The position numbers were made by a program, and so were the translations under genes. A stretch of DNA of 61,677 nucleotides, filler included. It is 5 parts of 5 records of this genome, joined end to end, with 100 filler letters (N's around TTAATTAATTAA, not from the genome) between each part and the next. Parts side by side here need not be neighbours in the genome. Positions count along the whole stretch, not along the records: positions 1 to 17,384 come from SRR20825019_2616; 4 more parts are not named here. One strand, given 5' to 3'. Of this stretch, positions 7,283 to 38,812 are shown in pieces. Positions within the stretch are counted from its first letter, which is position 1. Every line of letters begins with the position of its first letter. The notes beneath the pieces are model-generated. The model did no database searches. It was not told the origin of the DNA and was given only the letters and a program-made list of their open reading frames with translations.

Positions 7283-10200
7283 TCAGAACTTTATCTTGAG
7301 CTGCACCTCACTGGAGCGTGCCCGGCCGGTGCTCGAGGCGGCTCCCTCGCGGTGGATGGCACACTGGATATTGACAGATGGCGACAACGGGGCCCAGGTG
7401 CGGTCAATCTCCTGCAACACCGGCGAGATGTCAGTACTAGCGTGATCCGTCGCAACGACCCAACCCAATAAACACCCTTGCCAGCACGCCACCACCGCCA
7501 GCCCTGCTTCCAACACCCCTCCACCCGACTCACCTCGTCACCGGCGCCCCACGGCCGCCACCCGATCACGTCGCCATCGTTGATGTAATAAGGCGCGGCA
7601 CGGACTGTCCGCGCCGGCTCCTTCCCATCCTGGGCGGCACTCCCTTCCTGCGGCGCCATGGCCATCCACTGGCTGAATCCGGGCGCGTACTTTGCCACAC
7701 GGATAGACTCCGGCGCCCGCCCCACGGTCTCGGCCACCCTCTTGTAGACGTCTTCGAGCATGGGAGCGGGCCCCGCATCGAGGATCAGCTCCTGGGCCGG
7801 GCCCCAGGACCCCAGGGCGGTGTCGCGTGCGCGGAGAAGCAGCACGATTCCGTGCGGCGGACAGGGGGGAGCCCCCACCTGGAGGACAATCTTGCCCCCG
7901 TCCTGGACCTGCTGGCGCGCGAGGGTCACTCCGTCCTGCAGTGTCTTGCCGGGCGTCATGTCCACCAGCCGCCGGGCACGCACCTGCTCCAGGTCCATCG
8001 GGGTGCCTTCTGGCACAAGAGCCCTCCACACACCTGGGTCCACCGTGGCCATGGCCATTTGCTTCAGCTCGTGGACGGACGACGACTTGGGCAGCTCCAC
8101 GCTACACAGTGTAAAGAGCCCCCAGCCTCCATAGTCGCGCGCTGCTGTAGTCGGCACACGCACAGGCATACCCGATCTGACCGGGCCGGCGGCATCGTCC
8201 GCGCCCGGCGGGGCCAAGGTGAAACAGAAGATCTGCAGGGATATTTGCCCCTTGACAGGGGCGGGACCACGCTCCAGGTGGACCCGGTCCTGGTCGCGGA
8301 TGCCCGCTGCCTCCAGCGAAACGTGCTCGTCCGTGTAGAGCTCGGCCGGGTTGTCCCACATGTCGTTGCGGCGCAGGCGCAGGTTGGAGGGAGATTCACC
8401 AATGGCCTCGGCGGCCCGCGACTTGAGCTCAAACACCAAGGCGGTCCGGTCGACTTCGATCGTCACCACACCCGTCCGGCCGCCCCCTTCCTCCGCCGTG
8501 GCGTGGTTTATCGCATCGGTGGAGGAGGTGTCGTTGGTTGTGGGACTCGATGGGACCACGCACAGAACGCGCATAGACGAGGTCAACGGTGCCTCACCGT
8601 ACTCAAGAACCACGGATTCCCCGTGCACTAGGCCGCTCTCCGCAACCGTTGCCATCTCGGAGGCAAACAGCTCCCCGTCACCCTGAAGGCCCGCCTGGCA
8701 TCGTCGCAGCCGCGTCACATCCTTCGTCACCTCCACTTGCATCCCCAGCGCCCCGAGGGCCGCGACCTTAAAGGCCCCCAGCGTGTCGCCGGGTGCCACG
8801 GGCACGCGGACTACCGGAACGTCGCCCAGGTGGGCCTTGCTACACTCCGCCCTGACCACGATCTCCATCGACTCCCCCGCGCTGCATTCGCTGCCCACCG
8901 CCGAGCCACGGCCGGCGGCCGCCTCCTGAGCCGCGCGCTTCTCCTCCTCCGCAATGGCTTCTGGAGACTTGGTCTCGTAGTTGACCGTGGCCCCGTCCAA
9001 CACCTTCAGCTCATGGAGCGACTTGGCGTCGTCGTCGAGGACACGGAGCTGCCGCGCCACCCGATCCACAAGGGAGATGACCCCGCGAGGGACGTCACCG
9101 TCCTCCAGGATCCCGTTCACCTCTTCGTCTAGCAACTCTCTCAGGCGCGCCACGGTCACGGATGCGGAAACAAAGACCGGCGACGTGACCGTCTGGACGT
9201 CCTTGCCCGCGCCCCGCCGCTCCACAAAGTTCACGCTCAGCTCGAGGCAGTTGTCGGTGTCGGGGTCAAAGGGGATGTTGTTGATCGTCTGGCCATTCCA
9301 GCACATCACGGAGCACCCGTTGTACAGCCCGGCTCCAGTCACCGTAACGCCCTCCGGAGCTGATGACCGGCAGTCGCCGGGGGAGCCAATCGCGCCGGCG
9401 AGACCACCCTGGTCCTTGGCGGTGGAAAGCCCCTCCAGGGTCGAGGCGGCCGCGGCGACCACGTTCTCGTCAGCATCCTGTGGGCCGGGGCCCGCGTCCT
9501 GCGCACCATCGCCTCCGACCACCCCGGCCGAGAAGGTCCATTCGTCGCACGGCGTGGGCACATCGGGCGAGACGCTTCCGTCCTCGCTGCCCACCACCGC
9601 ATCGTTGCTGTGGGTCGAGTCATCGTCCCCGCCCCCGCGCCGGGTGCTCGCGCCGTACTCCACCAGCTGCTCCTGGAGACTCTTGCAAAACTTCACTCCG
9701 TGATTGGACACCCGGACCGGCGAGGCCAAGATGACGTCCGGGCCGGTGATGCCCATGTCCTGCCGTTGCGACTCGCTCAGCATCCCGTGGAGCCTCGCCC
9801 GCAGAGCCTCCATCGTCTCGCGTTTATCCACCGTGATCACCTGCCCGCTAGTCATTCCCTCGCCGACCCCGCCGGTCACACCGGGCCCAGCGCTTTCCCC
9901 GCTTGCCACAACGCCCGCATTGCACATGGAGCTCGACGACACGTCGTCGCTGTCGAACACGGACGCGGGGCGTATGACGAACCGCGGGTCAAACACGAAG
10001 GCGGTGGGGAGGTGGATCGTAACCTGGAGCTTGTTGATCTCCTCGTCTTCCACCTCCCTCTGGCGCTTCAAATCGGCGTTCTTCGCGGCCAGGTAGTCGC
10101 GCAGAACGGCGGGCGGCAGCAGTGCCTCGGGCAGGCCCCCGGGTTCTGGGGCTGCCGTCGCGGGAGGGGCCTTGGTCGGGACGTCGATGACCCCTCCCGC

Positions 10201-11856
10201 GGCGGGGACCGGGCACGAGCGCGCGCGGTACACAAGCATATAGCCACACTCGTTGCTGCCTCCGTACACCCGCTTGAGGTCTTCCTCAGACATGGGCGTG
10301 ACGCTGGTATCATTGAAATCGTACCACCGGGCGGGCGGTGTGCCCGCGGAGGGACTCGACTCGCCTTGAGCGGCGCGGGGGGTGTCCACGCCCATCAGAT
10401 CAGCCACCTCAGACGTCCCCGCGGGCGCCGTTCCGGCACCATCCGGGGGGGAGATGATATCCCTTATGTACGCATGGTAGTGGCCCGAGTAAGCGCTTCC
10501 CGAGTGGATCACCACCGAGAACAGATCGTACAGGTGCGACCCGTCGTCCGCCACCGCCCCGCTGCCTCCGCTGCCCGCACTGAGCTCGCCCGAGAGCCGG
10601 CCGGAGTTCTGGCGTTTGGGGTGCGGTTCCAGCCCGTCCATCGAGGCGTTCGAACGGGCCACGGACATCATGCTGACGCTCGCCGTGTCCCCGCCCTCTG
10701 CCGCGCCATGGGCTGTGGAGCCAGCATATGACACCATCGATGGTGATCCACGCCCGGGCCCGCCCCCGCCGCGGCCTTCAAGGTAGGGAGTCATATCCAG
10801 GACCAAGGGGAACGCGTGTTCACTGGTCAGCTTGGAGCGCTGGTCCGTTTGCCAGTTGTACTCGAAGCGACTCAGGTTGAAGGTCAGCATCGGCGGCAGA
10901 CGGCGGAAGAGAGCCCCGGAGCGCGCATCCGACTTCTGGCCACAGTTGTCGCACTGGTACTGATTCGCGCCCTCCAGGAGCTCGGTCTCAACCACCCTGG
11001 CCAGGCTGTCCGTCACGCTGGGCAGCCCCTTGACAACAAGAGACACGTCCATGAAGGCCTCTTCACGGTCGCGGTGATTGTTGCAGTTGAGGCATGTCAT
11101 GCGGTTGACGTAGACGCCCTTGTACAGGTCCTCGATCATGGACTTGGCCGGGGTCGATGCCAGAGACTGCTCCAGGATGTCAAACAGAAGCCGGTTCAGC
11201 TCATGGACGTCGTGCTGTACGGAGGTGTCGGACGAGTCCCAGCCGAACGCCTCCGTCAAGCTCTCCGTGGAGACCCACCCCGTGTCCTGGCACTGCAACG
11301 CCGCGAATAGCCGCTGCAGCTCGGTCGGGATGATGTGCAGCTCCGTGTCGCCCGCGCCACCGCCTCCCGCGGCGGGCTCTTCCTCCATCCTCTCCTCCCC
11401 GCCCTCGTCGACGGGATTGCTGAACAACCAGTCCAGCACCGCGTCGTCATCACCATGCGGCAAGGCCTCCAGCGCACGCACCACCGCGGTCCGACTGAAC
11501 CCCATGCTGGTAAAGTTCATCAGCTTCGCCTCGTTCACCTTGGGCCGCGGCGCCTTGCCCGTGTCCGCCCCCTCGGGGGCCCGCGCGGGCAGGCCGTACA
11601 TTCCCGCGCGGAGCTCCGGCGTCATGAACATTGTCTGCAGCAGACTGTTCAGATAGCATGTCGCCCCCCTGGCTCGCACGCGTCAGCACCACAAAACACT
11701 CAGCCAACCCGCCTGGCCTCACCTGTTCTCAATCCCAGCAAACCCAGTCGGTGGGCGCGGGGCGGGCACTGTGGAGCCGTACGTCCTGGGGGTGACGTGG
11801 CCGGTCCTCCAGTTGCCAGTGGTGACGTCTTCGTCTTCAAAAAGGTCGCCCAGCAT
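7283..11856 (-). CDS. USP40: Ubiquitin carboxyl-terminal hydrolase, USP40-like (peptidase C19) with inserted UBA domain and C-terminal ubiquitin-like repeats; exons 11723-11856, 7534-11668, 7283-7411
   Basis: Spliced N-terminus MLGDLFEDED...[26 protein letters not shown] closely resembles the USP40 N-terminus (MFGDLFEE...[11 protein letters not shown]). Also QHDVHE box, CxxC...CxxC Zn ribbon, His box HSGSAYSGHYHAYI, and WYDFND. Confidence 0.85.
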
Positions 11857-13187: not shown

Positions 13188-15780
13188 ATGAGCTCCGAGG
13201 AGAAGGAGGTGGAGAGCCAGGCGGCGGCGACAGGCGATGAGCATACTGAGGGGTGAGAGAGTACAAGTTCAGGGGAGGCGGCAGCCACTAACCCGTGTCC
13301 CGTGCAGAAATGGGGGAGGTGGGCCCAGCCCAGGCGAGGCGGGTCCTTCTAGTGAGGCGGGTCCTTCCAGTGAGGCGGGTCCTTCTGGTGAGGCGGGTCC
13401 TTCTGGTGAAGGGGCTTCGGACTTGCCGGCGCCGGAGGACAAGCCGGAGGGCAACGCTCCGGCCAACACGGGCGAGGGCGCACCAAATGCCGCCCTTCCA
13501 GACCCACAACCCATAGTCGGGGCGGCAGACTCCTATGGCGACGCGGTACACGAGCTGGAGAGGCCCTTGCCACAGCTTGCCAGCAGCGGAGGGGGTAGGG
13601 AGCCCGCGGCTGTGTCGCCGCCTGGCTCGCCAGACCCCTTCGACGTGGAGCTGCAGGTGGGGCCCGATGGCAAGAAGTGCCTCAGGACCACGGACATCAA
13701 GAAGCTGGTGCAGAAGCGGATCAAGCGGAACTCGTCAGGGGTGTTTGAGACATCCAAGTTGGAGCTCCCGGTGAAGCGCGAACACCGGAAGACGAGTGGC
13801 GGGCCGACGTTCAACCGGCAGGAGCTGGGCGAGCTGCACGTTCACATTATATCCGCAAGGCACATCACGGACAATCATAAGCACGAGGACGACTTTGCTG
13901 CGCCGTACGTCTTTGTACAGTACGAGAGCCAGCGCTTCGCCACACGGACCATGTATGGTGCGGTGCACGAGGCGGCATGGGACGAGGACATCACCTTCTC
14001 GATATACTCCATGTGCGAGCTGAAGATCAAGCTGCGGCACTCGACCGGGCGGACCATCGGCGAGATTGACATCGATGTTGCGGAGCTCATGATGAACACG
14101 GACGATGAGCGCTGGTGGGAAATCAGACACGTTGAGGATGACGTCGTGACGGGGGGTAAGTGCTCGAATGCGGTGCCTGAGGAGCAGTGTGCCGACCAGA
14201 TCGCTTTTGCAGAGATTCATGCCGTGGTGCGGCTGAGCGACCCGCGGTTTCGTGACGACCTCACTGGAGCCATGTGGATGGAGGAGCAGGGGAAGGAGGA
14301 CAGCGAGTACCTCGTCCCGCCCCCGGAGCTCGAGGCCGAGACCAAGACGGAAGATGAGTTTGAGGAGCCGCCCGCCTCGAAGACCAAATCGATCTCGCTA
14401 GGCAATAATGAGGGCGGGGGGCGGCGGCTCAGGAAGCGATCGAAGAGCATCGGCAACATTTGGAAGATCGGGCATGAGAAGAAGGTGCCCAAGCCTGAAT
14501 TCCTTGCAGAACTGGGTGAGGAGGAGCCCCATGAGTGGCGCTGGAACGAAAAGGAGGATGACAGCGAGACTGCGCCCGGGCTGGGCGGAGTGTCTGAGTC
14601 GGGCGATGCACGGCAATCGTATTCCGTCGGGGCGCCGGGGGACAACTGGAACGGCTCGGCGGAAGTTAGCCCGTATGCTGAGTCGCCGCGAGACGGATCT
14701 TCGCGGTCTGTCACCGAGATGGAGACGATGGAAGGGGGCGAGGGCGGCATGGACCTTGATCGGGTGAGGGAGATCAAGACATCCTCGGAGACGGGGCGGT
14801 CCCGCGGCAAGAGTAAGGACGGTGAGGACATGCGGCCGTGGGACTCGGAAATGAATGCGGACCCGGACCCCAAGAAGCCCCAGGGCCCAGGCGCCCGGCC
14901 TGAAAACAAAAAGAAAAAGCCTGGTACGGTGGTGTACCGGCCGCCCCTGAACTACTTCAACCGGTACGGGATCATGACGATGGTGGACCGGGTGACTGAA
15001 GGAGGCGTGGCCCCGCCGGAGGAGGATGATGAGAACGCGGAACTGGATAGTCAGGAGGAGGAAGGAGAGGACAAGCCGCTGGGGGGCGGCGAGGTGGATG
15101 AGTCGACTGCCATTGTTGTGTACAAGGGAGCCGGGGAGGAGGGCCCCGCGGAGGATGCAGAAGTCAGGGACGAGGCTCACGGCTACGCGCTCCACGAGGC
15201 ATTCCGGTGTGAGATCAGGAGGACGGTGGTTAAGACCCTCCTTCCGCCCATTAGCAAGCTGCTCAACGTCACCGGAGAGGGAAGAAAGGACATGAAGAAC
15301 GCCCCGGCGAGGACGGCGCGGCGTGGGGGGGCTGATGGCAGGAGGCGGAAGGATGTCCAGCCCCCGCCGGAGGAGTGGTCGGGCCCGGACCCCAACGCTG
15401 ACGTCGCCAAGTACACAGCGCTGTACAACCCGCCCAAGCCCATGAAGCCGGCCCCGCCGCCGCCCAGGGACAAGCCCAAGCACCTCACCTCGAAGCAGCG
15501 CAAGAGGCGGCTGAGAATGGCCGTGGAGCGGAGCGTGGAGCGGGAGCTGATGCAGCAGAGCCACTTTGTCCGTCAGGACAAGGACATCCTCGGCCTGGGC
15601 CCACAGCCGGGCTACATGCGCCACGCGGAGCTCTATCGCGAGATCCAGCAGCCGCACGTGCCGGCGTATCCGTTCCGCAAGGTGACGTACAAGATGAAAC
15701 ACAACGTCCCGGATGAGCACACGGCGGAGAACAGGGCCGCCTCCCAGAAGATCATCAGCCGCCTCGTTAGCCAACACTGA
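13188..15780 (+). CDS. C2-domain protein with long acidic/low-complexity regions; introns 13253-13307 and probably 14156-14212
   Basis: ATG 13188 (MSSEEKEVESQ) splices via GTGAGA...CTAAC...CAG into the 847-aa ORF. C2-like segment GELHVHIISARHI...PYVFVQYESQRFATRT...WDEDITF...IGEIDI...GEIHAVVRL. Canonical Ca-binding Asp residues appear mostly absent. Confidence 0.75.
13336..13407 (+). repeat. 18-bp coding tandem repeat x4 (EAGPSS/EAGPSG)
   Basis: GAGGCGGGTCCTTC(T/C)(A/G)GT repeated four times in frame. Confidence 0.9.
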
Positions 15781-15873
15781 TCAGCCGTCTTGGTACTGGC
15801 GAACAGTGATCCCCGAACGGAACCTTGGAGCTACCGCCCGGTCGGCTCTGCTGGCCCTCATTCAACCAATTGG

Positions 15874-17146
15874 TCAGCATATGTCCAGGCTACTCCGACC
15901 CGTAGTGAATGCCGGCTTTACTGCGCAAAGCGCCACCGATGTAGTAAAATAGTAGACAGCAATCCAACGACTGAAGTGTCCCCCGCCCCGCCATCACCCC
16001 TTACCCGAGGAGACGCTGGCAATGATGGATTTCTCCAGGCTGAAGTCGTAGTTGAACTCGTGGAGGGGCTGTGGGTCCTGGTAAGCCAGCGGGAGGGTCG
16101 TGGCGCTGTCCTGCGGCACAAACTTCTCGTTGACCCTCACCACAACCGACCTCATGACCGCGTCCAGTGGGTTCGCTCCAACCTCCAGGGAGGCCCTCTT
16201 GTTCTTGGCAGCATCGGGCGAGCCGCCGGCCCCACCAGCGCCCAGCTTGAGGTAGTTCTTCCACTGGTCTGCGGCGGACTGCACGGGGTTATTCGGGCAG
16301 GGGGGTCTGAGGACAAGACTACATACGTGTGTGGACATGAGCCGGCGAAAGTCGTCGGCCAGACTGCTGGACGACAGAGTGAGGGACTGGATGAACTCCG
16401 GCTTGCGCATCACCATCGCTTTGTAGTCATTGAAGGTGATCCGGTTGTTCCGCGATAGATCGGCCTGCGTTGTGTCAGGACGGATCAACGCTCCCCATAA
16501 CCCAGGGGCACACCCACCTGCGCGAATATTTGATCCACCAGTTCCTTCAGCTGCTCATCGGTCGCCTCCTGCTCCAGTGTAGACACCAGGATTCGCCCCA
16601 GCTCCTCCCGTGATACAGACCCGGAACCATCGAGGTCATAAAACTTGAAAGAGGCTAGTGATGGTTGTATATGAACACGAGTATTACGCATTAAAAGGGT
16701 GGGGGGGGGTGCTTAGTTAGTCTCTTGATCAAACCAGGGCAACAACACGGGAGAGGTACCATTAAGCTTGTCATCGATGTTGGCATTTTCGGAGAAAACA
16801 GAGAGGGACACACAAAACTCGCGGAAGTCAATGTAGTTGTTGCCTTGGAGGTCCAGGACCTTAAAGACCTGGTTCACAAACGGAGACGACCGACCGCCAC
16901 CTAAGGCTCTGCTGAGGTCCTGCGGCGCGAACAAGGACCGGTGTCAGTTTGGGTCAGACCCACTCCAGCCAACCAAGCCACGCCCACCTCCTTGCGAATG
17001 ACCTTGTTGTCCGAGCTGTACTGGCGGAACATATTGTGCAGCGTCTGCACCTCGGCTAGTGAGAAGGGGGTGTTCTGTGCAATTTTCTCGCACTCGGCGC
17101 GGCGAGCATTCTTCTTATCAGAACCCTTACCGGCCACCTGGCCCAT
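15874..17146 (-). CDS. Calcineurin-B-like/NCS-type EF-hand Ca2+ sensor with N-terminal Gly2 (possible myristoylation) and C-terminal UMA-like domain
   Basis: Introns 16920-16987, 16655-16759, 16465-16517, 16279-16326 give MGQVAG...TPFSLAEVQTLHNMF...VFKVLDLQGNNYIDFREF...DDKLNASFKFYDLDGSGSVSREEL...ADLSRNNRITFNDY...YDFSLEKS. Stop at 15994, or at 15874 if intron 15921-16004 is spliced. Confidence 0.85.
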
Positions 17147-17384
17147 GACTGCCGGCTCACAACAGCCAACTCGGTAACCACACTAACGTTTATACACTGT
17201 TACGGACAACAACATGGTCACAGCACCCCATGGGACCCCATGACTATGGCCCCGCCGCATCTCGGTTAGCTGTTTAGACGGGCCGCGCCCCGCCAGGCCG
17301 ACGGGGGTCAGACCAACCACCATCCGTGGCCGCAGTGCCCGACCAGGTGACTATCAGTGCTGCCGGGCGGGGGGGGGGGGGGGG

Positions 17385-17484
17385 NNNNNNNNNNNNNNNN
17401 NNNNNNNNNNNNNNNNNNNNNNNNNNNNTTAATTAATTAANNNNNNNNNNNNNNNNNNNNNNNNNNNNNNNNNNNNNNNNNNNN
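17385..17484. other. Artificial contig spacer
   Basis: 44 N + TTAATTAATTAA (stops in all six frames) + 44 N. Confidence 0.98.
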
Positions 17485-18630: not shown

Positions 18631-21600
18631 ATGTCCTCATTCCTCGTCATGTCCAAGCGTCGAGATTTGGAGGGACACCGCCTCCCGTCTCATGGCCGCT
18701 GGAAGGACACCTGGGGGGTGGCGCTCTTGGCTGTGTTGGTGCTGGCAGGTGTGAGCCCCAGCTTTGCTGTCAAGTCTTGCGGAACAGAGCCATGGATAAT
18801 ACCCACAGAAACAACAGGGCACTACGAGATAGACAACCCTCAGCTGAGGTGAGTGGAAGGCGTGGGTTTGCCGCCTGCATTTTGACGTGGTTTCCAGGAC
18901 GCCGCCGTCATTACATAGATGGTTTGGTCTTCATGTCACGGCGAAGAATGGCTTCATGATCGTATACGAGGGAGACGATATCCGAAGTGGCGGCAGTAAC
19001 TATGCCTTTAACTGGAAGAAGTTGCATATGTACCGTTTGGTTTCCAACGTGTGGGCGCATTCACAGACTTGGGCCGAAAGACCCATGGCCAGCAAGTTTG
19101 GCGACCGAGCGCAGCTGAGTGAGAGTGCGGCGTGGATGGCTGCCCAGGACATTGGGACATATACCAGCGACAGCCCTCCCAATTCTTGTGGCACCGATTG
19201 TGACGGTACCCTTGAGCTGTACAAGCGGACCGGGGATCTTTTTAATACAACTGCCAACCAAATATTGACGCACCCATTGGGGTATACCAGCAGGGCGTTT
19301 GGGAGCCGCTACGCCTTCCTGGGTGACACGGAGCTCTTTGTCGGCGCCAGACTGGTGGGCTCCGGAGGTGATGACTCCCTTTTCTACTTCAAGCTTGTGG
19401 GCGACACGTGGACATACCAGCATGAGATTCAAACACCCTGCGGTGGCGGCGGCATGACGGAACCACTGGTAGTGGCAACATATAATCACCCAACCGACGA
19501 TGACCAGGATATGGTGACTCTTACGCATATTGCCTGCGGAGGGAGTTTACGGGGTGGCATCAGTGTGATGTTTAGAAACCAGGGCGGGGCCAACCAGTTC
19601 GGTGTGCGGCAGGTGATCGAGAGTATTTTTGACTGGGGTCGGTTCGGCAAGGCTTTGAACATAGGATTGGACTCATCAAATAATCTGTTGCTGGCCGCCG
19701 CTGATTATTTGGACGGTGGCGCCGGCATCAGCCAGGCTGGAGCTGCGAGGCTCTTTCGGTTTGATAATGCACAGTTTCTTGCCAGTAATGATCCCTTCCC
19801 AACGTACGCGACCGCGTTGACAAGGAGGTCTGCATATCAGGAAGTGGGCGAATGGATGGGGAAACCTGAGTCTTCAATCGGTATTGGACCTGACATTGTG
19901 GCCTATGGCTCCCAAGCGCTTTCACACACCATTAGCGAAGGGGGTTCAGTCGTGATTTTCTGTAAGGTAAGATTTTCATGTCTCCACCTGGCAATAGACT
20001 CATCATTGCTTACATCAGGACCAAGGCGGTATAGATAACTGGGGTTATGCGGGCCATTTGATGGCAAACAATAATGTCGACGACGGAGTTCGTCGGAGTG
20101 TGGGAAGCTCGGTGACGTATCATGAACCCACGCATGAAATCATTGCGGGCGCACACCTCAAGGATCCTGACCAACAAGGTGCTGTGGCTATTTTCAAGAG
20201 CCATTCCCAGCCATTCGGTGCTACGGGCCCGTGGACATGCATTCTCTGCGACAAGGGTGAATACATCTACATAGAGACGTCTCCATCAACCCATGTGGCG
20301 TGTGCTACGTGCACGGAGGGCTATCAGGACACTTACAACCGGAGCCCCTCATGCAAGCTAGACTGTCCTCCGGGAAGTGCGATATCCTCTGATAAGAAGT
20401 CATGTGATGTGTGTCCGGCGGGGACGTACTCGACCGGCTCCACACAAGTCGGATGCACTGCCTGCCCTTCAGGTACCTATAATAATCAAGTGGGACAGTC
20501 GGAGTGCACTCCATGTGCAGCAGGATATGCTCAACCGGGCACTGGCTCTCTCGATTGCTCAGAGTGCCCCCCGGGTCTTTACGCTCCTGAGGGATCTTCG
20601 TCTTGCCTGAGTTGTGGTTATGACACGTACAATGATGAGCGGGCTGCTGGTGCTTGCAAGGCATGTCCCCTTGGTGGAGTAACCATGGCGGCGGCGCAAA
20701 CATCCATCGAGGGTTGCTTGTGTGCTGCAGAATGGGCTGGGGATCCCCCGAACGGCTTGGAATGTGTCGCATGCGAACTGGAGAAGGTGCAATGCCCATT
20801 TCCTACTGTGATTATGACCGCTAAAGCGGGCTACTACACGTCGGCATCCCGGCCCAATGTAGTCACTGAATGTGTGCCGACGACTGCATGCCTTGGAGGG
20901 AGCCATGAGGCCTGCGCAGAGGGATACGAAGGGACCTCGTGCAGCTCGTGCGCCGATGGATACTTTCGCTCTTTGAATGGCTGTGAGAAGTGCCCCGCTA
21001 ACTCATTGTTGCTGACTGGGTTGAAGTTTCTGGGGATTTTTGCCGGGGTAATGTTGCTTATGACAATCGTCATCATATTGGCAGGATTCTGCCAGATGCT
21101 TCAGAAGAAAGTTGGATTCGATTTCCGTTCGTACATGCGCAGGATCATGGCTGCTGTTGGCATTGTTGGTACGCTGATGACCTACATGCAAACCATAGGC
21201 ACTGTCATGTCCCTGAATATTGACTTACCAGATATATACTCAAAGTTCATGACGTATGTGAGCATCTTTAACCTTGATATCTCTCTTGTTGCTCAGCCGG
21301 AATGTGATGCCTTCAATAGCTTCCTAGTCAAGTACATCATCAAACTTATTGGTGTGCTGGTCTTTATTATTGTATTCTCCATGGCTCGTGCTCTGAGTGC
21401 TATCTTCCCTATTCTTGGAAAGTTTATGAAGCGCGCGTGGATGCTACGCAGAGATCCCGAGTCGCCGAACATCCCCAATCCGGTGACAATGCATGATATT
21501 TTGCTTGAAATGGGTGTGAATTTCTTTCGAGGTAAGACGGCAGGTGTATTTCATCTCTGTAGCCCTGGCTTAAGACGAGATTTTTGCAGCTATCTTGGCA

Positions 21601-23130
21601 ACTATGAAAGTGGCCTATCTCCCAGTGCATACAATGGTCTTGGAGCCCTTACGGTGTGTGCCCACAACATCCGAAAGCAGTGGACAGTCGGAATACGTGA
21701 TGGTGGTTGAACCCAGCCTGGTGTGTTATGGAAGCGACTCCAATTGGACTAGCCTGATTCCGCCCTGTGTGATCTTTTTCTTAATATTTTCTTGCGGCGG
21801 GCAACTGGTCATCAACCTTGTTAACGTCAGTTTCCACCGCAACACTTATCGAGAGCACGACGTCGGCACCTTGTTCAATGTCTTGTGGATACCGTACGAG
21901 GAGAAGTTCTACTTTTGGGAAAGTGTCGTGGTGCTGCGAAAGTTCGTGTTTGGTCTTGTGACTGTGACATCTTTGTCGGCCTTTGACCAGCTCTCGTTGT
22001 TTTTGGTTGTCATTGTTGTCTTTGCTAGCTTCACTGTGATGGCGCGCCCATACAAAGAGCTCTTTGATGATCTGGCGGAGGGAAGCACTTTAATTACTCT
22101 AATTCTTCTCCTCGCCCAGGTTGCGATGATTCAAACCGAATCTCAGAGCAGTACGAGCCAGATAATGATGGGAGGTGTGGTAGCTTCGGCGAACGTGATC
22201 ATGATGTGTATTCTGCTTGGAATTCTGATAGTCTTGGTTTGGCCTCGCGAAGTTGTTGTTGCTGTGAAATCTGTTAAAACGATTATGGGAGATGATCAGG
22301 ATGTCAGAGCAGCTAGCAATCCCTATTCTGACGAGGATCATAAGCACAAGTTGGATATTCTGCAATCTACCAAGGATCAGAGGCTGGCTTTGATCCGCGA
22401 CGAAATGTATAGCGGCAACATCAGGGATATTATCACGGGCTTGGAAAGCGCTGGGGTTGAGGTTGAGACTGAAATTACAGAACGGAGTGCAGGCAAGGCA
22501 GACCATGCGTTTCTTCAACAGTATCGAAACTACGTCCTGGGGGAGATTGAAAAGCACGAGGCCAGTTTGGATCGGGATATTGAGAAAACCCAGGAAATGC
22601 TTCTCCAAGTAACTTCGGTGCTGAAGGACCCGCTTCTTGGCCGGGATCCCATGGAATTGCCTCCCTCACTAGATGAGCCATCTCCAGAAGAATCCCCATT
22701 CCAGAATGATCCAATAGTGGAGGAAGGCAAGGTGAAGGATAGCCCTCGCATCTTAATGGATAGCCCGCGGTCACATCAAGACAGTCCCAGGGAACATGCC
22801 GACCAGGGCGAAGATGTAGGTGGTACCAACAATGACAGCCCCAAGTCCACTCCGCGGGAGACGCCTCGCAGTGTCGGCAAGGCAGACGAAGAATCTCCTC
22901 CGGACAGGCCATTCAAGCCGAGGAAAGTCAAATATGACCCGAATGACCCTGAGCTGGGTGACTTTGAGCCCCCAAAGACCATCAAGTTTCAGAACAATTC
23001 CGGTCGCGAAGGGAATGACCGAACAAAAGGAGGTGCCTCGGGCATTCAAACGAAGTATGGGAATAGGAAGACTATGGGCGCACAGATCATACAAGGCCAT
23101 CTTGCAAAGATGAAAAACAATGCTAAGTAG
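18631..23130 (+). CDS. Signal-peptide-bearing receptor-like membrane protein: FG-GAP/beta-propeller-like ectodomain, GCC2/GCC3 (ephrin-receptor-like) Cys-rich repeats, multi-pass TM domain, acidic cytosolic tail; 3 introns (~18849-18897, ~19967-20018, ~21532-21589)
   Basis: Hydrophobic leader VALLAVLVLAGVSPSFA; CxxCPxGxY repeats (CDVCPAGTYS, CTACPSGTYN, CSECPPGLYA); TM region with YEEKFYFWESVVVLRK and RPY motifs typical of this protist family. GT-AG introns join four ORFs. Confidence 0.8.
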
Positions 23131-27624: not shown

Positions 27625-27724
27625 NNNNNNNNNNNNNNNNNNNNNNNNNNNNNNNNNNNNNNNNNNNNTTAATTAATTAANNNNNNNNNNNNNNNNNNNN
27701 NNNNNNNNNNNNNNNNNNNNNNNN
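27625..27724. other. Artificial contig spacer (eukaryote to bacterium switch)
   Basis: 44 N + TTAATTAATTAA + 44 N. Confidence 0.98.
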
Positions 27725-27875
27725 GGCCGCCCCACGGCACGGCGATTTGGTTGCCGTTGCACGGAACAGATGGGTGGGATGTGTTTGGCTGCCATTAAGT
27801 GGCAGACACTGAGGTTGGATCGCCGTACCTCGGCCCGTCGATGCGCGGCTTCGGGCTCCGTTTTCAGCGTAAACC

Positions 27876-28229
27876 TCAACTCCCCCGATACGTCGAATAC
27901 CCGAACGGCGAAAGCAGCAGCGGCACGTGATAATGCATCGCTTCCGACATCCCGAACCGCAGCGGGATCACGTCCAGAAAGCGCGGCGCTTCGGGTGGAA
28001 CACCGCAGGCATCCAGATAATCGCCCGCGTGAAACACCAGCTCGTAGGTGCCGACCTGAAACTTCGCCTCGGGCAAAATCTGCGCATCCGTGCGCCCGTC
28101 CGCATTCGTCTCAACCGTTCTCAGATGCGTCCGCCCCCCATCCTCGACCCGAAACAGCTCAATCCGCAGCCCCGCCGCGGGACACCCCCGCGCCGTGTCC
28201 AGAACATGGGTTGTCAAATATCCGGCCAT
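27876..28229 (-). CDS. uraH: 5-hydroxyisourate hydrolase (transthyretin-like)
   Basis: MAGYLTTHVLDTARGCPAAG..., TNADGR, HYHVPLLLSPFGYSTYRGS (YRGS signature); GAGGAGG RBS before ATG 28229. Confidence 0.95.
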   Translation of the reverse strand: MAGYLTTHVLDTARGCPAAGLRIELFRVEDGGRTHLRTVETNADGRTDAQILPEAKFQVGTYELVFHAGDYLDACGVPPEAPRFLDVIPLRFGMSEAMHYHVPLLLSPFGYSTYRGS

Positions 28230-28382
28230 CGCATTTCCTCCTCGGTGATCCGCTGGCATATAGACAGAGCGCAGCACCCCCGGCAAAGCATCGCGCACAA
28301 GAGGCTGCTTCTGATATTTTTTGATAATCCCCCCGATTGTTTTGGATTACAGGGGGTGTAGACCCGATCAAAGGAGACCACC

Positions 28383-29795
28383 ATGAACCGCTACCCCCGT
28401 GACATGACCGGCCATGGTGCCACCCCGCCCGCAGCCAACTGGCCCGATGGCGCAAAGATCGCCGTTCAGATCGTGCTGAACTACGAAGAGGGCGGCGAGA
28501 ACAACATCCTGCACGGCGATGCCGCGTCCGAGGCATTCCTGTCCGAAATCACCGGCGCGCAGCCTTGGGTCGGGCAACGGCACTGGAACATGGAAACCAT
28601 CTATGAATACGGATCACGCGTCGGCTTCTGGCGTCTGCACCGCATGATGGCCGACCTGCCCGTCACCGTCTACGGCGTGGCCACCGCGCTGGCCCGTGCG
28701 CCCGAACAGGTCAAGGCGATGCAGACCGCAGGCTGGGAGATCGCCAGCCACGGTCTGAAATGGGTCGAACACAAGGACATGCCCGAGGACGAGGAACGCG
28801 CCGCAATCGCCGAGGCCATCCGCCTGCACACCGAGGTGACCGGCACCCCGCCGCGCGGTTGGTACACGGGGCGGTGTTCGATGAACACCAACCGTCTGGC
28901 CGCCGAGACGGGGCAGTTTGCCTATCTGGCCGACACCTATTCCGACGAGCTGCCCTATTGGGAACGTTTTGACGGGCGCGATCAGTTGATGGTGCCCTAT
29001 ACGATGGACTGCAACGACATGCGCTTTGGCATTCAGGCGGGCTTTACCAACGGGGCGCAGTTCGAAAGCTATCTGATGGACAGTTTCGACATGCTCTATG
29101 CCGAAGGACAGGCGGGGGCGCCCAAGATGCTGTCGATCGGCCTGCACTGCCGCATCGCGGGCCGTCCGGGGCGGGCCGCCGGGCTGAAACGGGCGCTGGA
29201 CTATATGAAGTCGCACGAGGGCGTCTGGTTCGCCAGCCGTCTGGAGATCGCCGAACATTGGGCGCGCACCCACCCTGCCCCCACGGCACCGCGCCCGTCG
29301 GACATGGACCGCGATACATTTGTGCAGGCCTTCGGTGGCGTCTTTGAACACAGCCCCTGGATCGCCGAAGGCGCGCACGCGCTGGAGCTGGGCCGCACCC
29401 ACGACACCGCGCAGGGCATCCATCAGGCGCTGGCGCGGGTGTTCCGCACTGCGTCGGACGAACAACGTCTGGCCGTGCTGACCGCCCACCCCGATCTGGC
29501 CGGCAAGCTGGCGGCGGCGAAACGTCTGACCGCCGAGTCGACCGCCGAGCAAGCCTCGGTCGGCCTTGACGCGCTGACCGACGACGAACGCGCGAAATTC
29601 ACCGAACTGAACGACGCCTACACTGCCAAGTTCGGCTTTCCCTTCATCATCGCCGTGCGCGACAACACCAAGGCGTCGATCATGGAAGCCTTCGCGCGCC
29701 GCATCGACAACGACCGCAACACCGAGTTTGCCGAGGCCTGCGCACAGGTCGAACGCATCGCGGAACTGCGCCTGATCGAGAAGTTCGGCGCATGA
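28383..29795 (+). CDS. puuE: Allantoinase PuuE (polysaccharide-deacetylase fold) fused to OHCU decarboxylase UraD
   Basis: N-terminal VLNYEEGGE, YEYGSRVGFWR, EIASHGLKW, GLHCR; C-terminal FEHSPWIAE, AHPDLAG, STAEQASVGL, KFGFPFIIAVR; GGAG RBS. Confidence 0.95.
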   Translation: MNRYPRDMTGHGATPPAANWPDGAKIAVQIVLNYEEGGENNILHGDAASEAFLSEITGAQPWVGQRHWNMETIYEYGSRVGFWRLHRMMADLPVTVYGVATALARAPEQVKAMQTAGWEIASHGLKWVEHKDMPEDEERAAIAEAIRLHTEVTGTPPRGWYTGRCSMNTNRLAAETGQFAYLADTYSDELPYWERFDGRDQLMVPYTMDCNDMRFGIQAGFTNGAQFESYLMDSFDMLYAEGQAGAPKMLSIGLHCRIAGRPGRAAGLKRALDYMKSHEGVWFASRLEIAEHWARTHPAPTAPRPSDMDRDTFVQAFGGVFEHSPWIAEGAHALELGRTHDTAQGIHQALARVFRTASDEQRLAVLTAHPDLAGKLAAAKRLTAESTAEQASVGLDALTDDERAKFTELNDAYTAKFGFPFIIAVRDNTKASIMEAFARRIDNDRNTEFAEACAQVERIAELRLIEKFGA

Positions 29796-30280
29796 CCCAG
29801 ACGCTGACACTCAGCGCCCTGACGCCCGAAGCATTTGCCCCCTTCGGCGATGTTCTGGATGTCACGGGCACGCCGGACAAGATCATCAACCAGGGCCTGT
29901 GCGGCCGCCATCACGACCGCGCCAAGCTGGACTTCGGCGACGGGCGCGCGGGCATCAGCCTGTTCAACGCCGAACCGCGCCAGTTTCCGATCACGCTGGA
30001 CATGGTCGAACGTCACCCCGAGGGGTCTCAGGCCTTTATCCCGATGAGCCTGCATCCCTTCGTCGTGGTGGTCGCCCCCGACGAGAACGGCAAACCCGGA
30101 GCCCCCCGCGCGTTCGTGACCGAGGCAGGACAGGCGATCAACCTGCATCGCGGCACATGGCACGGCGTCCTGACCCCGATCCACGCACCGGGGCTGTTCG
30201 CCGTGGTCGACCGCATCGGAGATGGTGCGAACCTCGAGGAACATTGGTTCGAGACGGCTTACCAGATTGTCGAAGGATAA
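29792..30280 (+). CDS. allA: Ureidoglycolate lyase
   Basis: LTPEAFAPFGDV, ERHPEGSQAFIP, GTWHGVL motifs; ATGA overlap with puuE. Confidence 0.92.
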   Translation: MTQTLTLSALTPEAFAPFGDVLDVTGTPDKIINQGLCGRHHDRAKLDFGDGRAGISLFNAEPRQFPITLDMVERHPEGSQAFIPMSLHPFVVVVAPDENGKPGAPRAFVTEAGQAINLHRGTWHGVLTPIHAPGLFAVVDRIGDGANLEEHWFETAYQIVEG

Positions 30281-30352
30281 AGGGCGGCACGCGCTGCCGT
30301 TGCATGACGGGCCAGCCGCACCAACGTCTCGACAAGACGCCGCTTTTCGACA

Positions 30353-30383
30353 CGGCCCCGACAATCCCTGATCGTCGGGGCCG
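30353..30383. terminator. GC-rich hairpin between convergent allA and AhpD-like gene
   Basis: CGGCCCCGAC...GTCGGGGCCG perfect 10-bp stem; no classic U tail. Confidence 0.5.
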
Positions 30384-30389
30384 CAAAAT

Positions 30390-30953
30390 TTACCGGTCCG
30401 CCTTTGGCACCCACGCGAACTTTTGCATCGGCGCATCGACGGGCGTGTTCGCGATGTGGTTGGTGTAATTGCTCATCACCTTCTGGGCCAGGCCGAGGAT
30501 GACCTCCAGCACATGGCGCTGCGTGTAACCCGCATCATAAAACGCCTGAAGCGTCGCGTCATCGACGTGGCCCCGTTCGCGCACCATAGCGAGCGTAAAG
30601 GTGCGCAGCGCTTCCAGCTTGGGCGTCGGCAGCGGTGTTTCGTCCCGCAGCGCGTCGGAAATCTCGTCGCTGACTTTCATCATCTTCGCGATACCGGTGT
30701 GGCCGGGCACGCAATAATGGCACCGATGTTCCACATTGATTGTCTGCCACACGACGGTTTTTTCATCGGCATCGAATACAGTCTCTTCAGCGAACAGGCG
30801 GTGCAGTGTCTGATAGCCTTCGAGCGCGGCAGGCGATCCGGCCAGAACACCGTGCAACCCCGGCAGACGGCCAAAAGCCTTCTTGGATTTCTCGATCAGC
30901 GGAAGGGATTTCTCGGGGGCGTTTGTTTCGTCAAGGCGGTCTAGTGTGGACAT
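30390..30953 (-). CDS. Carboxymuconolactone decarboxylase / AhpD-like alkylhydroperoxidase family protein
   Basis: INVEHRCHYCVPGH (CxxC...H), KVMSNYTNH; start MSTLDRLDE with AAGGAG RBS. Confidence 0.88.
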   Translation of the reverse strand: MSTLDRLDETNAPEKSLPLIEKSKKAFGRLPGLHGVLAGSPAALEGYQTLHRLFAEETVFDADEKTVVWQTINVEHRCHYCVPGHTGIAKMMKVSDEISDALRDETPLPTPKLEALRTFTLAMVRERGHVDDATLQAFYDAGYTQRHVLEVILGLAQKVMSNYTNHIANTPVDAPMQKFAWVPKADR

Positions 30954-31005
30954 CTGAGTCTCCTTTGCGGTCGCATTTCGCGACGGTACCAAAGGCACTT
31001 TGCAA

Positions 31006-31050
31006 TTTTTGAGCGATCGCTCAAGTAATAAAAGAGTGATCGCTCAAAAA
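31006..31050. promoter_or_regulatory. Tandem palindromic operator, probably bound by the adjacent TetR
   Basis: Perfect 16-bp palindrome TTGAGCGATCGCTCAA (31009-31024) and near copy AAGAGTGATCGCTCAA (31032-31047) in the AT-rich divergent gap. Confidence 0.75.
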
Positions 31051-31108
31051 TGGATAAAACCTCGATTTCGGACTGTCTGATCCGCGATACAGGGTGTATT
31101 AAAAGGCT

Positions 31109-31708
31109 ATGGCCCGATTACCGTCATATGATCGCGATGCAGCACTTGATGCTGCGATGTCCCTATTCTGGGTCAAAGGGTATACTGCGACATCGCTCAA
31201 AGACCTCGAGCACGCTTTGAAGATGCGGCCCGGTTCGATCTACGCGGCCTTCCAGAGCAAGGAGGAGTTGTTTCGCGCAACACTTGATCTGTACGCCGGA
31301 CGGATGGAGGCCGAACTGGCCCAAATGATTTCCGATGCGCCCTCCCCCCTGACGGCGTTGCGGGGCTATTTGCTGTCGCTGGGCGGGCTTGATTGCCGCG
31401 ACAAGCCATCGACCGCCTGCATGCTGGTCAAATCCCTGCTGGAAATCCAGAGCGATCACCCGGAGTTGCGGGGCATCGTTGTGGATCATCTGAATACCGT
31501 CCAGAGACTGCTGGAAGACGGGTTCTCAAAGGCCCGGAGCGCGGGTGAAATACCCGCAGACGCAGACCCCGCCCGTCTGGCACGGCGGATGCAGACCTAT
31601 GTTTTCGGCCTGAAAATCCAGGCCCAGCGGAAACCCGATCCGAACGACATGCAACAGCTGGCGCGGGATCTGGCGGACGAGATCACGGGCCTGCGTCGCG
31701 TCAACTGA
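31109..31708 (+). CDS. TetR/AcrR family transcriptional regulator (NemR/ComR-like)
   Basis: LDAAMSLFWVKGYTATSLKDLEHALKMRPGSIYAAFQSKEELF HTH; ACMLVK motif. Confidence 0.92.
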   Translation: MARLPSYDRDAALDAAMSLFWVKGYTATSLKDLEHALKMRPGSIYAAFQSKEELFRATLDLYAGRMEAELAQMISDAPSPLTALRGYLLSLGGLDCRDKPSTACMLVKSLLEIQSDHPELRGIVVDHLNTVQRLLEDGFSKARSAGEIPADADPARLARRMQTYVFGLKIQAQRKPDPNDMQQLARDLADEITGLRRVN

Positions 31709-31733
31709 ACGCCACCAAAGCCATCTCTCGCCG

Positions 31734-32558
31734 CTACCCCCGCCCCAGCATGTTCACCGCCTGCATCAGCGACGGGCGCATGGCGCGGACGAAATCCTCT
31801 TCGGGCCAGTCTGCCAGCATCGCCGTGATCGTGACGGCCCCGATCGGCACGCCTTGGGCGTTGACGATGGCGGCACCGATGGCAATTTCGCCCGGCATCA
31901 ACTGTTCCAGCGCCACGGCATAGCCTTGTTGTTTCACCTGCCGCGTCTTTTCCAAAATCGCATCTGGGTCGGTCAGCGTATGTTCGGTGAACTTCATCCG
32001 GTCGGACCGCGCCAGAACATCGCGCGCGGCGCCCTCGTCCATCTGCGACAGCACGGACCAGCCGGTTGACGTGCAATACATCGGCACGCTGTGCCCCAGC
32101 ATCATCGCGTGCAGCGTGTCCCGCTTGGGCTGGAACCGCGTCGCATAGATCAGCCGCACATCGTCGATCAACGACAGGTCCACCCGTTCGCCCACCGTGT
32201 CGCGCAGCTGCAACAACACCGGAATGGCGCGCTGGATCAGGCCGTTCAGGCGCATGGTGTCAAAGATATGGTCGTACAGACGAATGCCCGGCAAATAGCC
32301 CGTGTCGCGGTCGTCGCGCTGGATATACCCCAGCTTGCGCAGCGTGTGGATGATCCGTTGCGTGGTGCTGCGGTCCAGCCCTGCGGCCTTGGACATATCG
32401 GTCAGGCTCAGCGGGCCTTGTGCCCCGTGAAAGGCCGACAGCACCTGCATGGTGCGCGCCGCCGCGCGGACGAACAACGCGTCGCTGCCCCCCGCTTCGG
32501 TGTCGTTGACAGCAGCCGGATAGGAACCATTCCAGGCGTGGATCGTCTCGTTCGTCAT
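31734..32558 (-). CDS. IclR family transcriptional regulator
   Basis: LSLTDMSKAAGLDRSTTQRIIHTL HTH; PMYCTSTG; GYAVALEQLMPGEIAIGA. Confidence 0.92.
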   Translation of the reverse strand: MTNETIHAWNGSYPAAVNDTEAGGSDALFVRAAARTMQVLSAFHGAQGPLSLTDMSKAAGLDRSTTQRIIHTLRKLGYIQRDDRDTGYLPGIRLYDHIFDTMRLNGLIQRAIPVLLQLRDTVGERVDLSLIDDVRLIYATRFQPKRDTLHAMMLGHSVPMYCTSTGWSVLSQMDEGAARDVLARSDRMKFTEHTLTDPDAILEKTRQVKQQGYAVALEQLMPGEIAIGAAIVNAQGVPIGAVTITAMLADWPEEDFVRAMRPSLMQAVNMLGRG

Positions 32559-32808
32559 TCTCACCCTCTCTTGCGTGGCATCCGGCCGCTATATCACGTC
32601 GGTCGCAACGCCCGCCCGACATTTCTGCCCCGATGCGCCCCTGCGGGTGGCATGTGTGGCACCAGATCACGCAAACCGCCGCATTTTGCCTGAAATTTCC
32701 TGAATAGGCTTGTCGGATTGATATGCCTATGTCAACAATTGATACAGTTGCATCGAAAATAGCCTGCGGCACCCGCCCTGCCCATCGGCAAAAACAAGGA
32801 CCCAAGGA

Positions 32809-34215
32809 ATGACCAGCACGTCATTGCACGAACTGACCGCGACCCAACTGATTGCGCTTTATAAATCCGGCAAGGCCACGCCCGTCGACGCGACCCGCGA
32901 CGTGATCGCCCAGATCGCCCGCCGCGAGCCCGAGCTGCAAGCGACCTATGCCTATGACCCCGAAGGCGCGTTGAAGACCGCCGAGGAATCGGCCGCCCGC
33001 TGGAAAAACGGCGAACAGATCACCCAAGACGGCGTGACCATCGACGGCATCCCGACCACCATCAAGGAAAACATCGCGACCAAGGGCACGCCTGTCCCCT
33101 TTGGCACCGCCGCCACGCCGCTGGTTCCCGCCGAACAGGACGCGCCGCCCTCGGCCCGCCTGCGCGAAGCGGGGGCTGTCATCCTGGGCAAGACCACGAT
33201 GCCCGAGTTCGGCGCAATGTCTTCGGGCCTGTCCAGCATCCACCCGCTGACGCGCAACCCGTGGAACCTGAAAATGAACCCCGGCGGCTCCAGCGCAGGA
33301 GCCGGTGCGGCAGGGGCCGCAGGCTATGGCCCGCTGCACGTCGGCACCGACATCGGCGGCTCGATCCGCTTTCCCGCAGGCTGGAACGGGCTGGTCGGTC
33401 TGAAACCCAGCCTGGGCCGCGTCCAGATCGACCCGCCGTTCATGGGCCGCTGTGCCGGTCCGATGACCCGCACCGTTGACGATGCCGCGCTGATGATGGC
33501 CGTCCTGTCGCGCCCCGACCCGGATCAACGCGACTGGATGAACCTGCCGCCCGCCGACATCAACTGGACCGATCTGGACATGGACCTGACCGGCGTCAAA
33601 ATCGGCCTGCAACTGGATGCCGGTTGTGGCATGCCCATCGACCCGCAGGTGATCCCCCCGGTTCTGGAAGCCGCCAAGGCGTTCGAGGCCGCAGGCGCCA
33701 TCATCGAAGAAGTCGCCCCCTGGATGACCGACGAGATCCTTCAAGGGCTGAACCGCTTCTGGAGCATCCGCGCCGCCAAGGACATCGCCGACCTGCCGCC
33801 GGGCCACCGTGAAAAGATCCTGCCGATTTTCCTCGAGTGGGTCGAACCGGTGCCGGGCTTTACCGCTCTCGAAGGCTACCGCGCCTTCCAGGCCACGGTC
33901 GACATCCGCAAGCTGACCGTCGCCGCCACCAAACCCTACGACTTCATGCTGTCGCCGCTGTCGGCGCACATCAGCTTTCCGGCGGAATGGGGCTATGCCA
34001 ACAACGACGTGACCCGCGCCCACGACCAGATCGGCTTTACCGTCCCCTATAACATGAGCGAACAGCCCGCCGTATCGCTGTGCTGTGGCTACGACACCAA
34101 CGGCGTGCCGATGGGCCTGCAAATCGCAGGGCACCGGTTTGACGATCTGGGCGTGCTGCGGATGGCCAAAGCCTATGAACAGATGCGCCCCGCCATGCGC
34201 CCCTGGCCGATGTAA
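32809..34215 (+). CDS. Amidase signature family enzyme
   Basis: Lys-cisSer-Ser triad: TIKEN, PGGSSAG, GTDIGGSIR; AAGGA RBS. Confidence 0.93.
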   Translation: MTSTSLHELTATQLIALYKSGKATPVDATRDVIAQIARREPELQATYAYDPEGALKTAEESAARWKNGEQITQDGVTIDGIPTTIKENIATKGTPVPFGTAATPLVPAEQDAPPSARLREAGAVILGKTTMPEFGAMSSGLSSIHPLTRNPWNLKMNPGGSSAGAGAAGAAGYGPLHVGTDIGGSIRFPAGWNGLVGLKPSLGRVQIDPPFMGRCAGPMTRTVDDAALMMAVLSRPDPDQRDWMNLPPADINWTDLDMDLTGVKIGLQLDAGCGMPIDPQVIPPVLEAAKAFEAAGAIIEEVAPWMTDEILQGLNRFWSIRAAKDIADLPPGHREKILPIFLEWVEPVPGFTALEGYRAFQATVDIRKLTVAATKPYDFMLSPLSAHISFPAEWGYANNDVTRAHDQIGFTVPYNMSEQPAVSLCCGYDTNGVPMGLQIAGHRFDDLGVLRMAKAYEQMRPAMRPWPM

Positions 34216-34230
34216 GACGGCAAAAGACCC

Positions 34231-34256
34231 AAGGCCCGGCATCACCGTCGGGCCTT
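34231..34256. terminator. Hairpin between the two convergent amidases
   Basis: AAGGCCCG...CGGGCCTT stem in a 49-bp gap. Confidence 0.55.
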
Positions 34257-34264
34257 AGTCACGA

Positions 34265-35698: not shown

Positions 35699-35760
35699 CT
35701 TCGGTCTCCCTTTGGTCCTGTCCGCCGGATTGGAGCCGTCCCCAAAGGCGAACGCAACGG

Positions 35761-36609: not shown

Positions 36610-36619
36610 GGCAATTCTC

Positions 36620-36959: not shown

Positions 36960-37059
36960 NNNNNNNNNNNNNNNNNNNNNNNNNNNNNNNNNNNNNNNNN
37001 NNNTTAATTAATTAANNNNNNNNNNNNNNNNNNNNNNNNNNNNNNNNNNNNNNNNNNNN
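36960..37059. other. Artificial contig spacer
   Basis: 44 N + TTAATTAATTAA + 44 N. Confidence 0.98.
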
Positions 37060-38809: not shown

Positions 38810-38812
38810 TCC

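Follow-up and report, generated by a model that had tools for sequence, protein, structure and literature searches.

We identified a spliced gene in a GC-rich eukaryote that encodes a 292-aa protein in which a calcineurin-B/NCS/CBL-type four-EF-hand domain is followed by a C-terminal tail resembling the UMA module of the ESCRT-I subunits MVB12A/B, UBAP1, and UMAD1, without fully matching it. Our best reading of this architecture, which we put forward tentatively and with slightly more doubt than belief, is that of an MVB12-like ESCRT-I subunit that would use a Ca2+ sensor as its membrane module.

Gene model and transcripts

The window, i.e. the whole 61,677-nucleotide stretch of DNA that was analysed, is a chain of contigs, two of which are of bacterial type, and an Rfam scan of the whole window gave no matches. 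A preliminary description of this DNA had claimed a reading frame that begins with an MG-start CBL/NCS-type EF-hand domain, continues through a Gly-rich linker, and ends in a YDFSLE stretch at about 16015-16155. This frame was found on the minus strand, in the part derived from SRR20825019_2616, with the RSVVV...YDFSLEKSII stretch at 16021-16152 and with the EF-hand domain and the Gly/Ala-rich linker in the order proposed. The lower bound that had been given for the feature (15874) was set too far downstream, as it lies 120 bases past the stop, and positions 15874-15993 are 3' UTR in the transcript contigs. The features are as follows, with positions counted along the window:

15994..17146, minus strand: whole coding sequence; five exons, four GT..AG introns, 292 aa plus stop; joints confirmed by contigs
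16988..17146, minus strand: exon 1, encoding residues 1-53; includes the MGQVAGK start, a basic KK..RR cluster, and a degenerate EF-hand 1
17126..17146, minus strand: MGQVAGK; Gly2, small residue at position 6, Lys7, as read from the sequence
16760..16919, minus strand: exon 2, encoding residues 54-106 and contributing one further base; contains EF-hand 2, with its loop (D76-E87) at 16818-16853
16518..16654, minus strand: exon 3, ending at residue 152; contains EF-hand 3, whose canonical loop (D113-E124) is at 16602-16637
16327..16464, minus strand: exon 4, encoding residues 153-198; contains the variant EF-hand 4, with its loop (D154-D165) at 16426-16461, and completes the EF-hand domain
15997..16278, minus strand: coding part of exon 5; linker, UMA-like segment, and C-terminus
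16168..16278, minus strand: first part of exon 5, residues 199-235; flexible linker rich in Gly, Ala, and Lys
16021..16167, minus strand: UMA-like segment, residues 236-284; compared with the published VPF, F at +6, and Y-x-F-x-x-E
16138-16146, minus strand: VVV, residues 243-245, from the sequence
16120-16122, minus strand: F251, from the sequence
16030-16050, minus strand: YDFSLEK, residues 275-281, from the sequence
15994..15996, minus strand: TGA stop, 11 residues past E280; crossed by the contigs without splicing
15700..15993, minus strand: 3' UTR, extending another 260-279 bases past 15700 according to the record lengths and positions of the contigs

Counted from the 5' end of the gene, the introns measure 68, 105, 53, and 48 bases, all of them GT..AG. 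The ATG at 17146 has an in-frame stop just upstream (17183-17185), and Met-Gly is thus the first possible start. The 3' UTR overlaps the end of a convergent 862-aa ORF on the plus strand (13192-15777).

The spliced form of the gene is present in contigs from two public runs (X1 and X2), which belong to one sample of one study and whose run kind is unrecorded. These contigs, of 1467 and 1448 bases, start 11-12 bases 5' of the ATG and have four joints in all relative to the genome sequence, at which 48, 53, 105, and 68 bases are left out; in both runs (2/2) these joints coincide with the four predicted introns. From 16278 the contigs are collinear with the genome across the stop to 15700 and beyond it to their ends. 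As they join all five exons and cross the stop unspliced, the EF-hand part and the YDFSLE tail lie in one processed mRNA. This is the single transcript that the preliminary description had assumed, and the case it had named as refuting, transcripts that end or splice before the YDFSLE exon, is not what the contigs show. Five positions differ between genome and contigs, and three of them are coding: two are synonymous (P66 and G213) and the third, Y82H, affects a backbone-ligand position in the loop of EF-hand 2.

The same data bear on the possibility that the tail is not translated as read, be it because the gene was modelled wrongly, because the assembly is faulty, or because a different 3' exon is used, which we regard as very improbable. 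An alternative 3' end might be provided by a donor-like GTAAG site at 16003-16007, immediately ahead of the stop, and rare isoforms drop out of contigs. The dominant transcript form, however, uses no additional 3' exon, and in both runs collinearity extends across the tail and the stop in contigs from which all four other introns have been removed. The codons of the UMA-like segment have a GC3 of 0.88 and a GC2 of 0.36, similar to the neighbouring genes (GC3 of 0.78 and 0.81), which indicates that this frame is coding, and the sole difference between genome and contigs in the tail is the synonymous one at G213. An artefact of the gene model is therefore largely refuted.

The EF-hand domain and its N-terminus

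Sequence searches were run exon by exon on unspliced translations of the window, in which the tail comprises 94 aa. Exon 2 matched the Pfam family EF-hand_1 with an E-value of 1.1e-4 and 21.9 bits, falling under the cutoff of 25.4 because a single exon was scanned, while exon 3 exceeded the cutoffs for EF-hand_5 (27.1 bits, cutoff 25.9) and EF-hand_6 (25.2 bits, cutoff 25). Among PDB sequences, exon 2 was most similar to calcineurin B (1.2e-9), NCS-1 (1.4e-7), hippocalcin-like proteins (2.3e-7), and CBL2 (7e-6), with neurocalcin and GCAP1 also among its top matches, and exon 3 to calmodulin and calcineurin B, with E-values down to 1e-13. Pfam and PDB searches with exon 4 alone gave no match. 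By our reading of the loops, EF-hands 2 (D76-E87) and 3 (D113-E124) have complete ligand positions, EF-hand 4 (D154-D165) has an Asp at position 12, and EF-hand 1 is degenerate. Judged by these matches and loops, the N-terminal two thirds of the protein is an ordinary four-EF-hand domain of the calcineurin-B/NCS/CBL type, in agreement with the class proposed in the preliminary description. The penta-EF-hand family (ALG-2 type) was considered and set aside, as four EF-hand-like units can be read and the 60 best PDB matches obtained with exon 2 and with exon 3 included no penta-EF-hand protein.

Many calcineurin B proteins, neuronal calcium sensors, and plant CBLs are myristoylated, and the MG start is common to these proteins and the one described here. 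The sequence MGQVAGK fits the N-myristoylation pattern (PROSITE PS00008 type: Met-Gly, with a small residue at position 6). The putative N-myristoyl glycine and the basic cluster may together form a membrane anchor. The protein differs from these EF-hand proteins in its degenerate EF-hand 1, in an EF-hand 4 loop that ends in Asp, and in its C-terminal extension of ~94 residues, to which none of them gave a match.

The C-terminal tail compared with the UMA module

In the animal UMA proteins (MVB12A/B, UBAP1, and UMAD1), a module of ~45 residues likewise combines a hydrophobic triplet with a Phe at +6 and, ~30 residues further on, a Y-x-F-x-x-E motif. The triplet is a completely conserved VPF block, which is the main UMA-N anchor and whose Val and Phe lie buried in a pocket of TSG101-VPS37B (Flower et al., bioRxiv 10.1101/2020.01.31.927327). 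For UBAP1, whose UMA domain spans residues 17-63 (~47 residues), Agromayor et al. (PMC3314968) report that ESCRT-I binding is lost when either L17-D18-D19 or V20-P21-F22 is changed to AAA, while F28A is tolerated. UMAD1 has V89-P90-F91, Y125, F127, and E130 as conserved residues in common with MVB12A/B and UBAP1, and changing VPF to AAA abolishes binding (PMC10445733). The Glu of the UMA-C motif Y-x-F-x-x-E is described as "nearly absolutely conserved" (de Souza and Aravind 2010; UMAD1 paper PMC10445733). In the published descriptions this motif follows ~30-34 residues downstream, with ~32-34 residues from UMA-N to UMA-C.

The tail reproduces one part of this pattern and departs from another. 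Its Y275-D-F277-S-L-E280 agrees with Y-x-F-x-x-E, F251 lies at +6 from V245 as F28 does from F22 in UBAP1, and V245 is separated from Y275 by 30 residues, compared with 34 between F91 and Y125 of UMAD1. The Phe at +6 is a weak criterion, since F28A leaves the binding of UBAP1 intact. A flexible linker leads into the tail, whose YxFxxE motif is located ~11-12 residues from the C-terminus. MVB12A/B share this layout, and UMAD1 likewise carries its UMA at the C-terminus behind a linker. By its residue numbers and a length of 137 aa, UMAD1 also has its Glu a few residues from the end. Human UBAP1 presumably has the identical seven residues YDFSLEK at the corresponding place, which we treat as a lead only. 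In contrast, the position of the VPF block is occupied by V243-V244-V245, where Val is kept and both Pro and Phe are replaced by Val, and the position of the acidic LDD of UBAP1 ahead of it by M240-R241-S242, and the tail has no detectable sequence or profile similarity to the animal UMA proteins. The UMA-like assignment made in the preliminary description, which had itself pointed out that VPF is VVV here, thus stands for YxFxxE, the Phe at +6, and the spacing, but not for VPF and LDD, and it is not accompanied by a significant search match. The UMA domain is defined by a PROSITE profile. Since the defining VPF was looked for and VVV was found in its place, we do not class the tail as a member of the UMA family, although its function may nonetheless be that of a UMA module. 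On this comparison, the tail resembles UMA without a full match, and the UMA reading appears neither proven nor refuted.

The departures from the published pattern lend weight to an alternative to which we give a substantial but minor share of our belief, namely that the protein is an ordinary, lineage-specific Ca2+ sensor with a fast-evolving, mostly disordered tail, which would serve a function other than ESCRT-I binding (another partner, or phosphorylation) and resemble UMA by chance. Besides the missing VPF and LDD, the frequency of the short motif is in favour of this explanation: YxFxxE alone occurs three times in the 123,350 six-frame codons of the window, compared with 1.1 expected from 200 shuffles, and is thus not rare. 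YDFSLE is also present, by chance, in the unrelated T. gondii protein GAP50, as seen in literature text, and the longer string YDFSLEK had no match in a literature text search. Moreover, this finding was one selected out of a very large scan, and short motifs picked in this way may match by chance. The arrangement of the features argues in the opposite direction, as the hydrophobic triplet is followed by a Phe at +6 and, at a distance of 30 residues, by YxFxxE, all of them collinear and C-terminal after a linker. A composite pattern (a hydrophobic/Pro triplet, five residues, F, 18-30 residues, YxFxxE), which was written after seeing the sequence and is therefore a post hoc description, occurs once in the same 123,350 codons, in this tail, compared with 0.01 times in 200 residue shuffles. 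The seven-residue identity that we assume with UBAP1 also speaks against a chance resemblance. That several independent features follow one another collinearly, with suitable spacing and position, tips our judgement slightly away from chance and towards kinship or functional equivalence, while the missing VPF keeps it close to balanced between the two.

Database searches gave the chance explanation further weight. With the tail (94 aa) as query, no family was found in Pfam-A (E<=10), no match among PDB sequences (phmmer, E<=10), and none among 1.84 billion representatives (HMMER, E<=0.001). A word-index search for the tail among longer proteins yielded 366 candidates, none of them with E<=10, and a scan of metagenome contigs matched 172 pattern stretches, none of which was confirmed. 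Exon 2 behaved similarly, with 594 stretches matched in the metagenome scan and none confirmed, and 18 word-index candidates of which none scored. As judged by these searches, the collections contain no close orthologue of the 292-aa protein. For the tail, these blanks carry limited weight, because a module of ~45 residues that is conserved at the motif level was searched for in libraries of 10^9 proteins; to our knowledge, the profile libraries searched contain no UMA profile. In the ESM Atlas, both the whole tail and tail residues 38-94 retrieved bacterial IcmF-type clusters (0.88-0.89) that share few features with it, which we regard as noise. Other short motifs, namely calcineurin LxVP or PxIxIT, AP-2 FxDxF, ALIX YPxL, and MIM, were considered and dismissed by eye.

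Structure prediction is likewise compatible with a mostly disordered tail: for the frame running from exon 4 through the intron into exon 5 (156 aa), AF2 on a single sequence gave a mean pLDDT of 33.9 and no confident fold for the linker or the tail, although this model is poor over its whole length and too unreliable to be used. It also touches on an explanation in which the tail acts in cis, with the amphipathic VVVRV..KF stretch folding into the protein's own EF-hand groove as a pseudo-target and being released by Ca2+, either as its only function or as a gate for ESCRT-I. In domains of the calcineurin-B/NCS class, targets bind in the groove as hydrophobic helices, and the C-terminal tails of some NCS proteins fold back as pseudo-targets. 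The domain class is thus suited to such a mechanism, the tail has the hydrophobic patch, and a short helix is predicted, at low confidence, just before the patch (AF2 ORF residues 99-105). The YxFxxE end would be left unexplained, and we consider this mechanism improbable, although as a Ca2+ gate it could be compatible with an MVB12-like subunit.

A possible Ca2+-sensing ESCRT-I subunit

Our observations cover the structure of the gene, its expression as one transcript, the type of its EF-hands, and the motifs with the distances between them, whereas myristoylation, Ca2+ binding, ESCRT-I binding, and any role in membrane repair or scission are inferred. The MVB12-like subunit that we tentatively prefer would consist of three parts. 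The N-terminal anchor, with its putative N-myristoyl Gly and basic cluster, would tether the protein to a membrane. The four-EF-hand domain, with canonical EF-hands 2 and 3, variant EF-hand 4, and degenerate EF-hand 1, would act as the Ca2+ sensor. After a linker of ~37 residues, the C-terminal peptide of ~45 residues would act like the UMA module of MVB12A/B, UBAP1, and UMAD1 and sit in the groove formed by VPS23/TSG101 and VPS37, and through its docking the protein would join ESCRT-I as a fourth subunit of MVB12-like kind. In this arrangement, the EF-hand module would replace the lipid-binding MABP of MVB12 or the ubiquitin-binding SOUBA of UBAP1, and ESCRT-I would be kept at membranes in a Ca2+-responsive manner. 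Such a combination would fit the pattern of the animal UMA proteins, in which UMA is combined with a targeting module (MABP or UBA) that varies from protein to protein.

In animals, ALG-2 (PDCD6), a penta-EF-hand adaptor of ESCRT-I and ALIX, provides this link in trans. ALG-2 is a separate protein that binds the Pro-rich motifs of TSG101 and ALIX. According to abstracts of two papers (PMC10907313, PMC9436306), it couples Ca2+ to the recruitment of ESCRT at membranes. Whereas ALG-2 is separate from ESCRT-I, the sensor described here would be built into a subunit, and it is of the four-EF-hand calcineurin-B/NCS type.

More specifically, the gene may represent a case in which, in a non-animal GC-rich eukaryote, the fourth (MVB12-like) ESCRT-I subunit is itself a myristoylated Ca2+ sensor, with Ca2+ control built in and with a UMA module that is older and more widespread than the animal families from which it was defined and that tolerates VVV. 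We consider this extended proposal doubtful. A subunit of this kind would bear on how ESCRT-I obtains its fourth subunit outside animals and fungi. The cited papers describe UMA proteins from animals only, and reviews regard MVB12 as an opisthokont subunit that is missing from plants, which argues against the ESCRT-I reading. Plants, which lack MVB12, use FREE1 (FYVE1), showing that a lineage-specific extra ESCRT-I subunit with its own membrane-binding module can exist where MVB12 is missing; FREE1 carries a FYVE domain, binds VPS23 by other means, and has no sequence relation to the protein described here.

If the ESCRT-I reading is true, UMA would extend beyond animals, its VPF anchor could vary, and a single protein would link Ca2+ influx to the recruitment of ESCRT-I in membrane repair, scission, or sorting. 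Should the resemblance be due to chance, the gene would encode an ordinary EF-hand sensor with an orphan tail. The preliminary description knew of no EF-hand-UMA architecture, which fits the literature, where no such protein was found described among the listed matches for MVB12 and EF-hand, as judged by title and abstract, and where the sole EF-hand fusion found involves MABP. This nearest known relative in architecture is Phytophthora infestans PITG_06630, which combines MABP with eight EF-hands and ubiquitin-binding Zn ribbons (de Souza and Aravind 2010). As a fusion of EF-hands to an MVB12-associated domain it is a precedent, but it carries the membrane-binding MABP rather than the ESCRT-I-binding UMA.

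Intron 4 and the 3' end of the EF-hand/UMA-like gene

The five-exon gene for the EF-hand protein with a UMA-like tail was compared with its transcript contigs, i.e. the matching spliced contigs from runs X1 and X2, at the following features:

16279-16326, minus: intron 4, 48 bases, in frame and without stops
13192-15777, plus: convergent 862-aa ORF facing the EF-hand/UMA-like gene
~15420-15993 (minus) versus 13192-15777 (plus): 3' overlap region, from the transcript contigs

Judging by its length and frame, intron 4, if kept in the mRNA, would lengthen the protein by 16 residues where the EF-hand domain meets the linker, while leaving the frame intact. Genome and transcript contigs differ in the coding region by Y82H (window position 16835), which falls on position 7 of the EF2 loop and is an allele or strain difference; the remaining two coding differences are synonymous.

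The transcript contigs extend 260-279 bases past 15700. Their 3' end thus runs antisense to the final ~340-360 bases of the 862-aa ORF, for which a Pfam search returned no match. The overlap comes either from a long 3' UTR that reaches into the opposing ORF or from the assembler having fused two convergent transcripts.

Other ORFs with recognizable domains

Domain matches were obtained for four further ORFs:

48756-49499, minus: RING finger and EF-hand ORF
7294-11682, minus: large single-exon ORF, 1463-aa ubiquitin hydrolase (UCH) with UBA-like and USP40-type UBL matches
51757-55437, minus: large single-exon ORF of 1227 aa, RCC1 repeats together with a RasGAP domain
19998-21707, plus: Cys-rich ORF with Ephrin-receptor-like, NCD3G, and ELAPOR1-like repeats

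In the first of these, strong EF-hand matches (EF-hand_6, E=3e-21) come after the RING finger, making the ORF, by its domain content, another candidate for joining Ca2+ to the ubiquitin pathway, on a different contig from the EF-hand/UMA-like gene. The stretch holding the Cys-rich ORF has a GC content of 0.51, below that of the rest of the window.

Contig joints and bacterial-type contigs

Several distinct contigs are strung together in the window, which includes these components:

17385-17484, 27625-27724, 36960-37059, 45866-45965: contig joints, filler
27725-36959 and 37060-45865: bacterial-looking contigs with long intronless ORFs and NCBIfam model matches

Every joint consists of 44 N, TTAATTAATTAA, and 44 N, with TTAATTAATTAA carrying stops in all six frames, and the first is bordered by long C or G homopolymer runs. 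As the joints link separate contigs, genes flanking a joint are not genomic neighbours. NCBIfam matches on the two bacterial-looking contigs include an allantoinase PuuE fused to an OHCU decarboxylase, a TetR-type regulator, two amidases, a ThDP-binding enzyme, an aspartate dehydrogenase, and an ABC permease. Both contigs likely represent contamination or an associated bacterium within the eukaryotic assembly.
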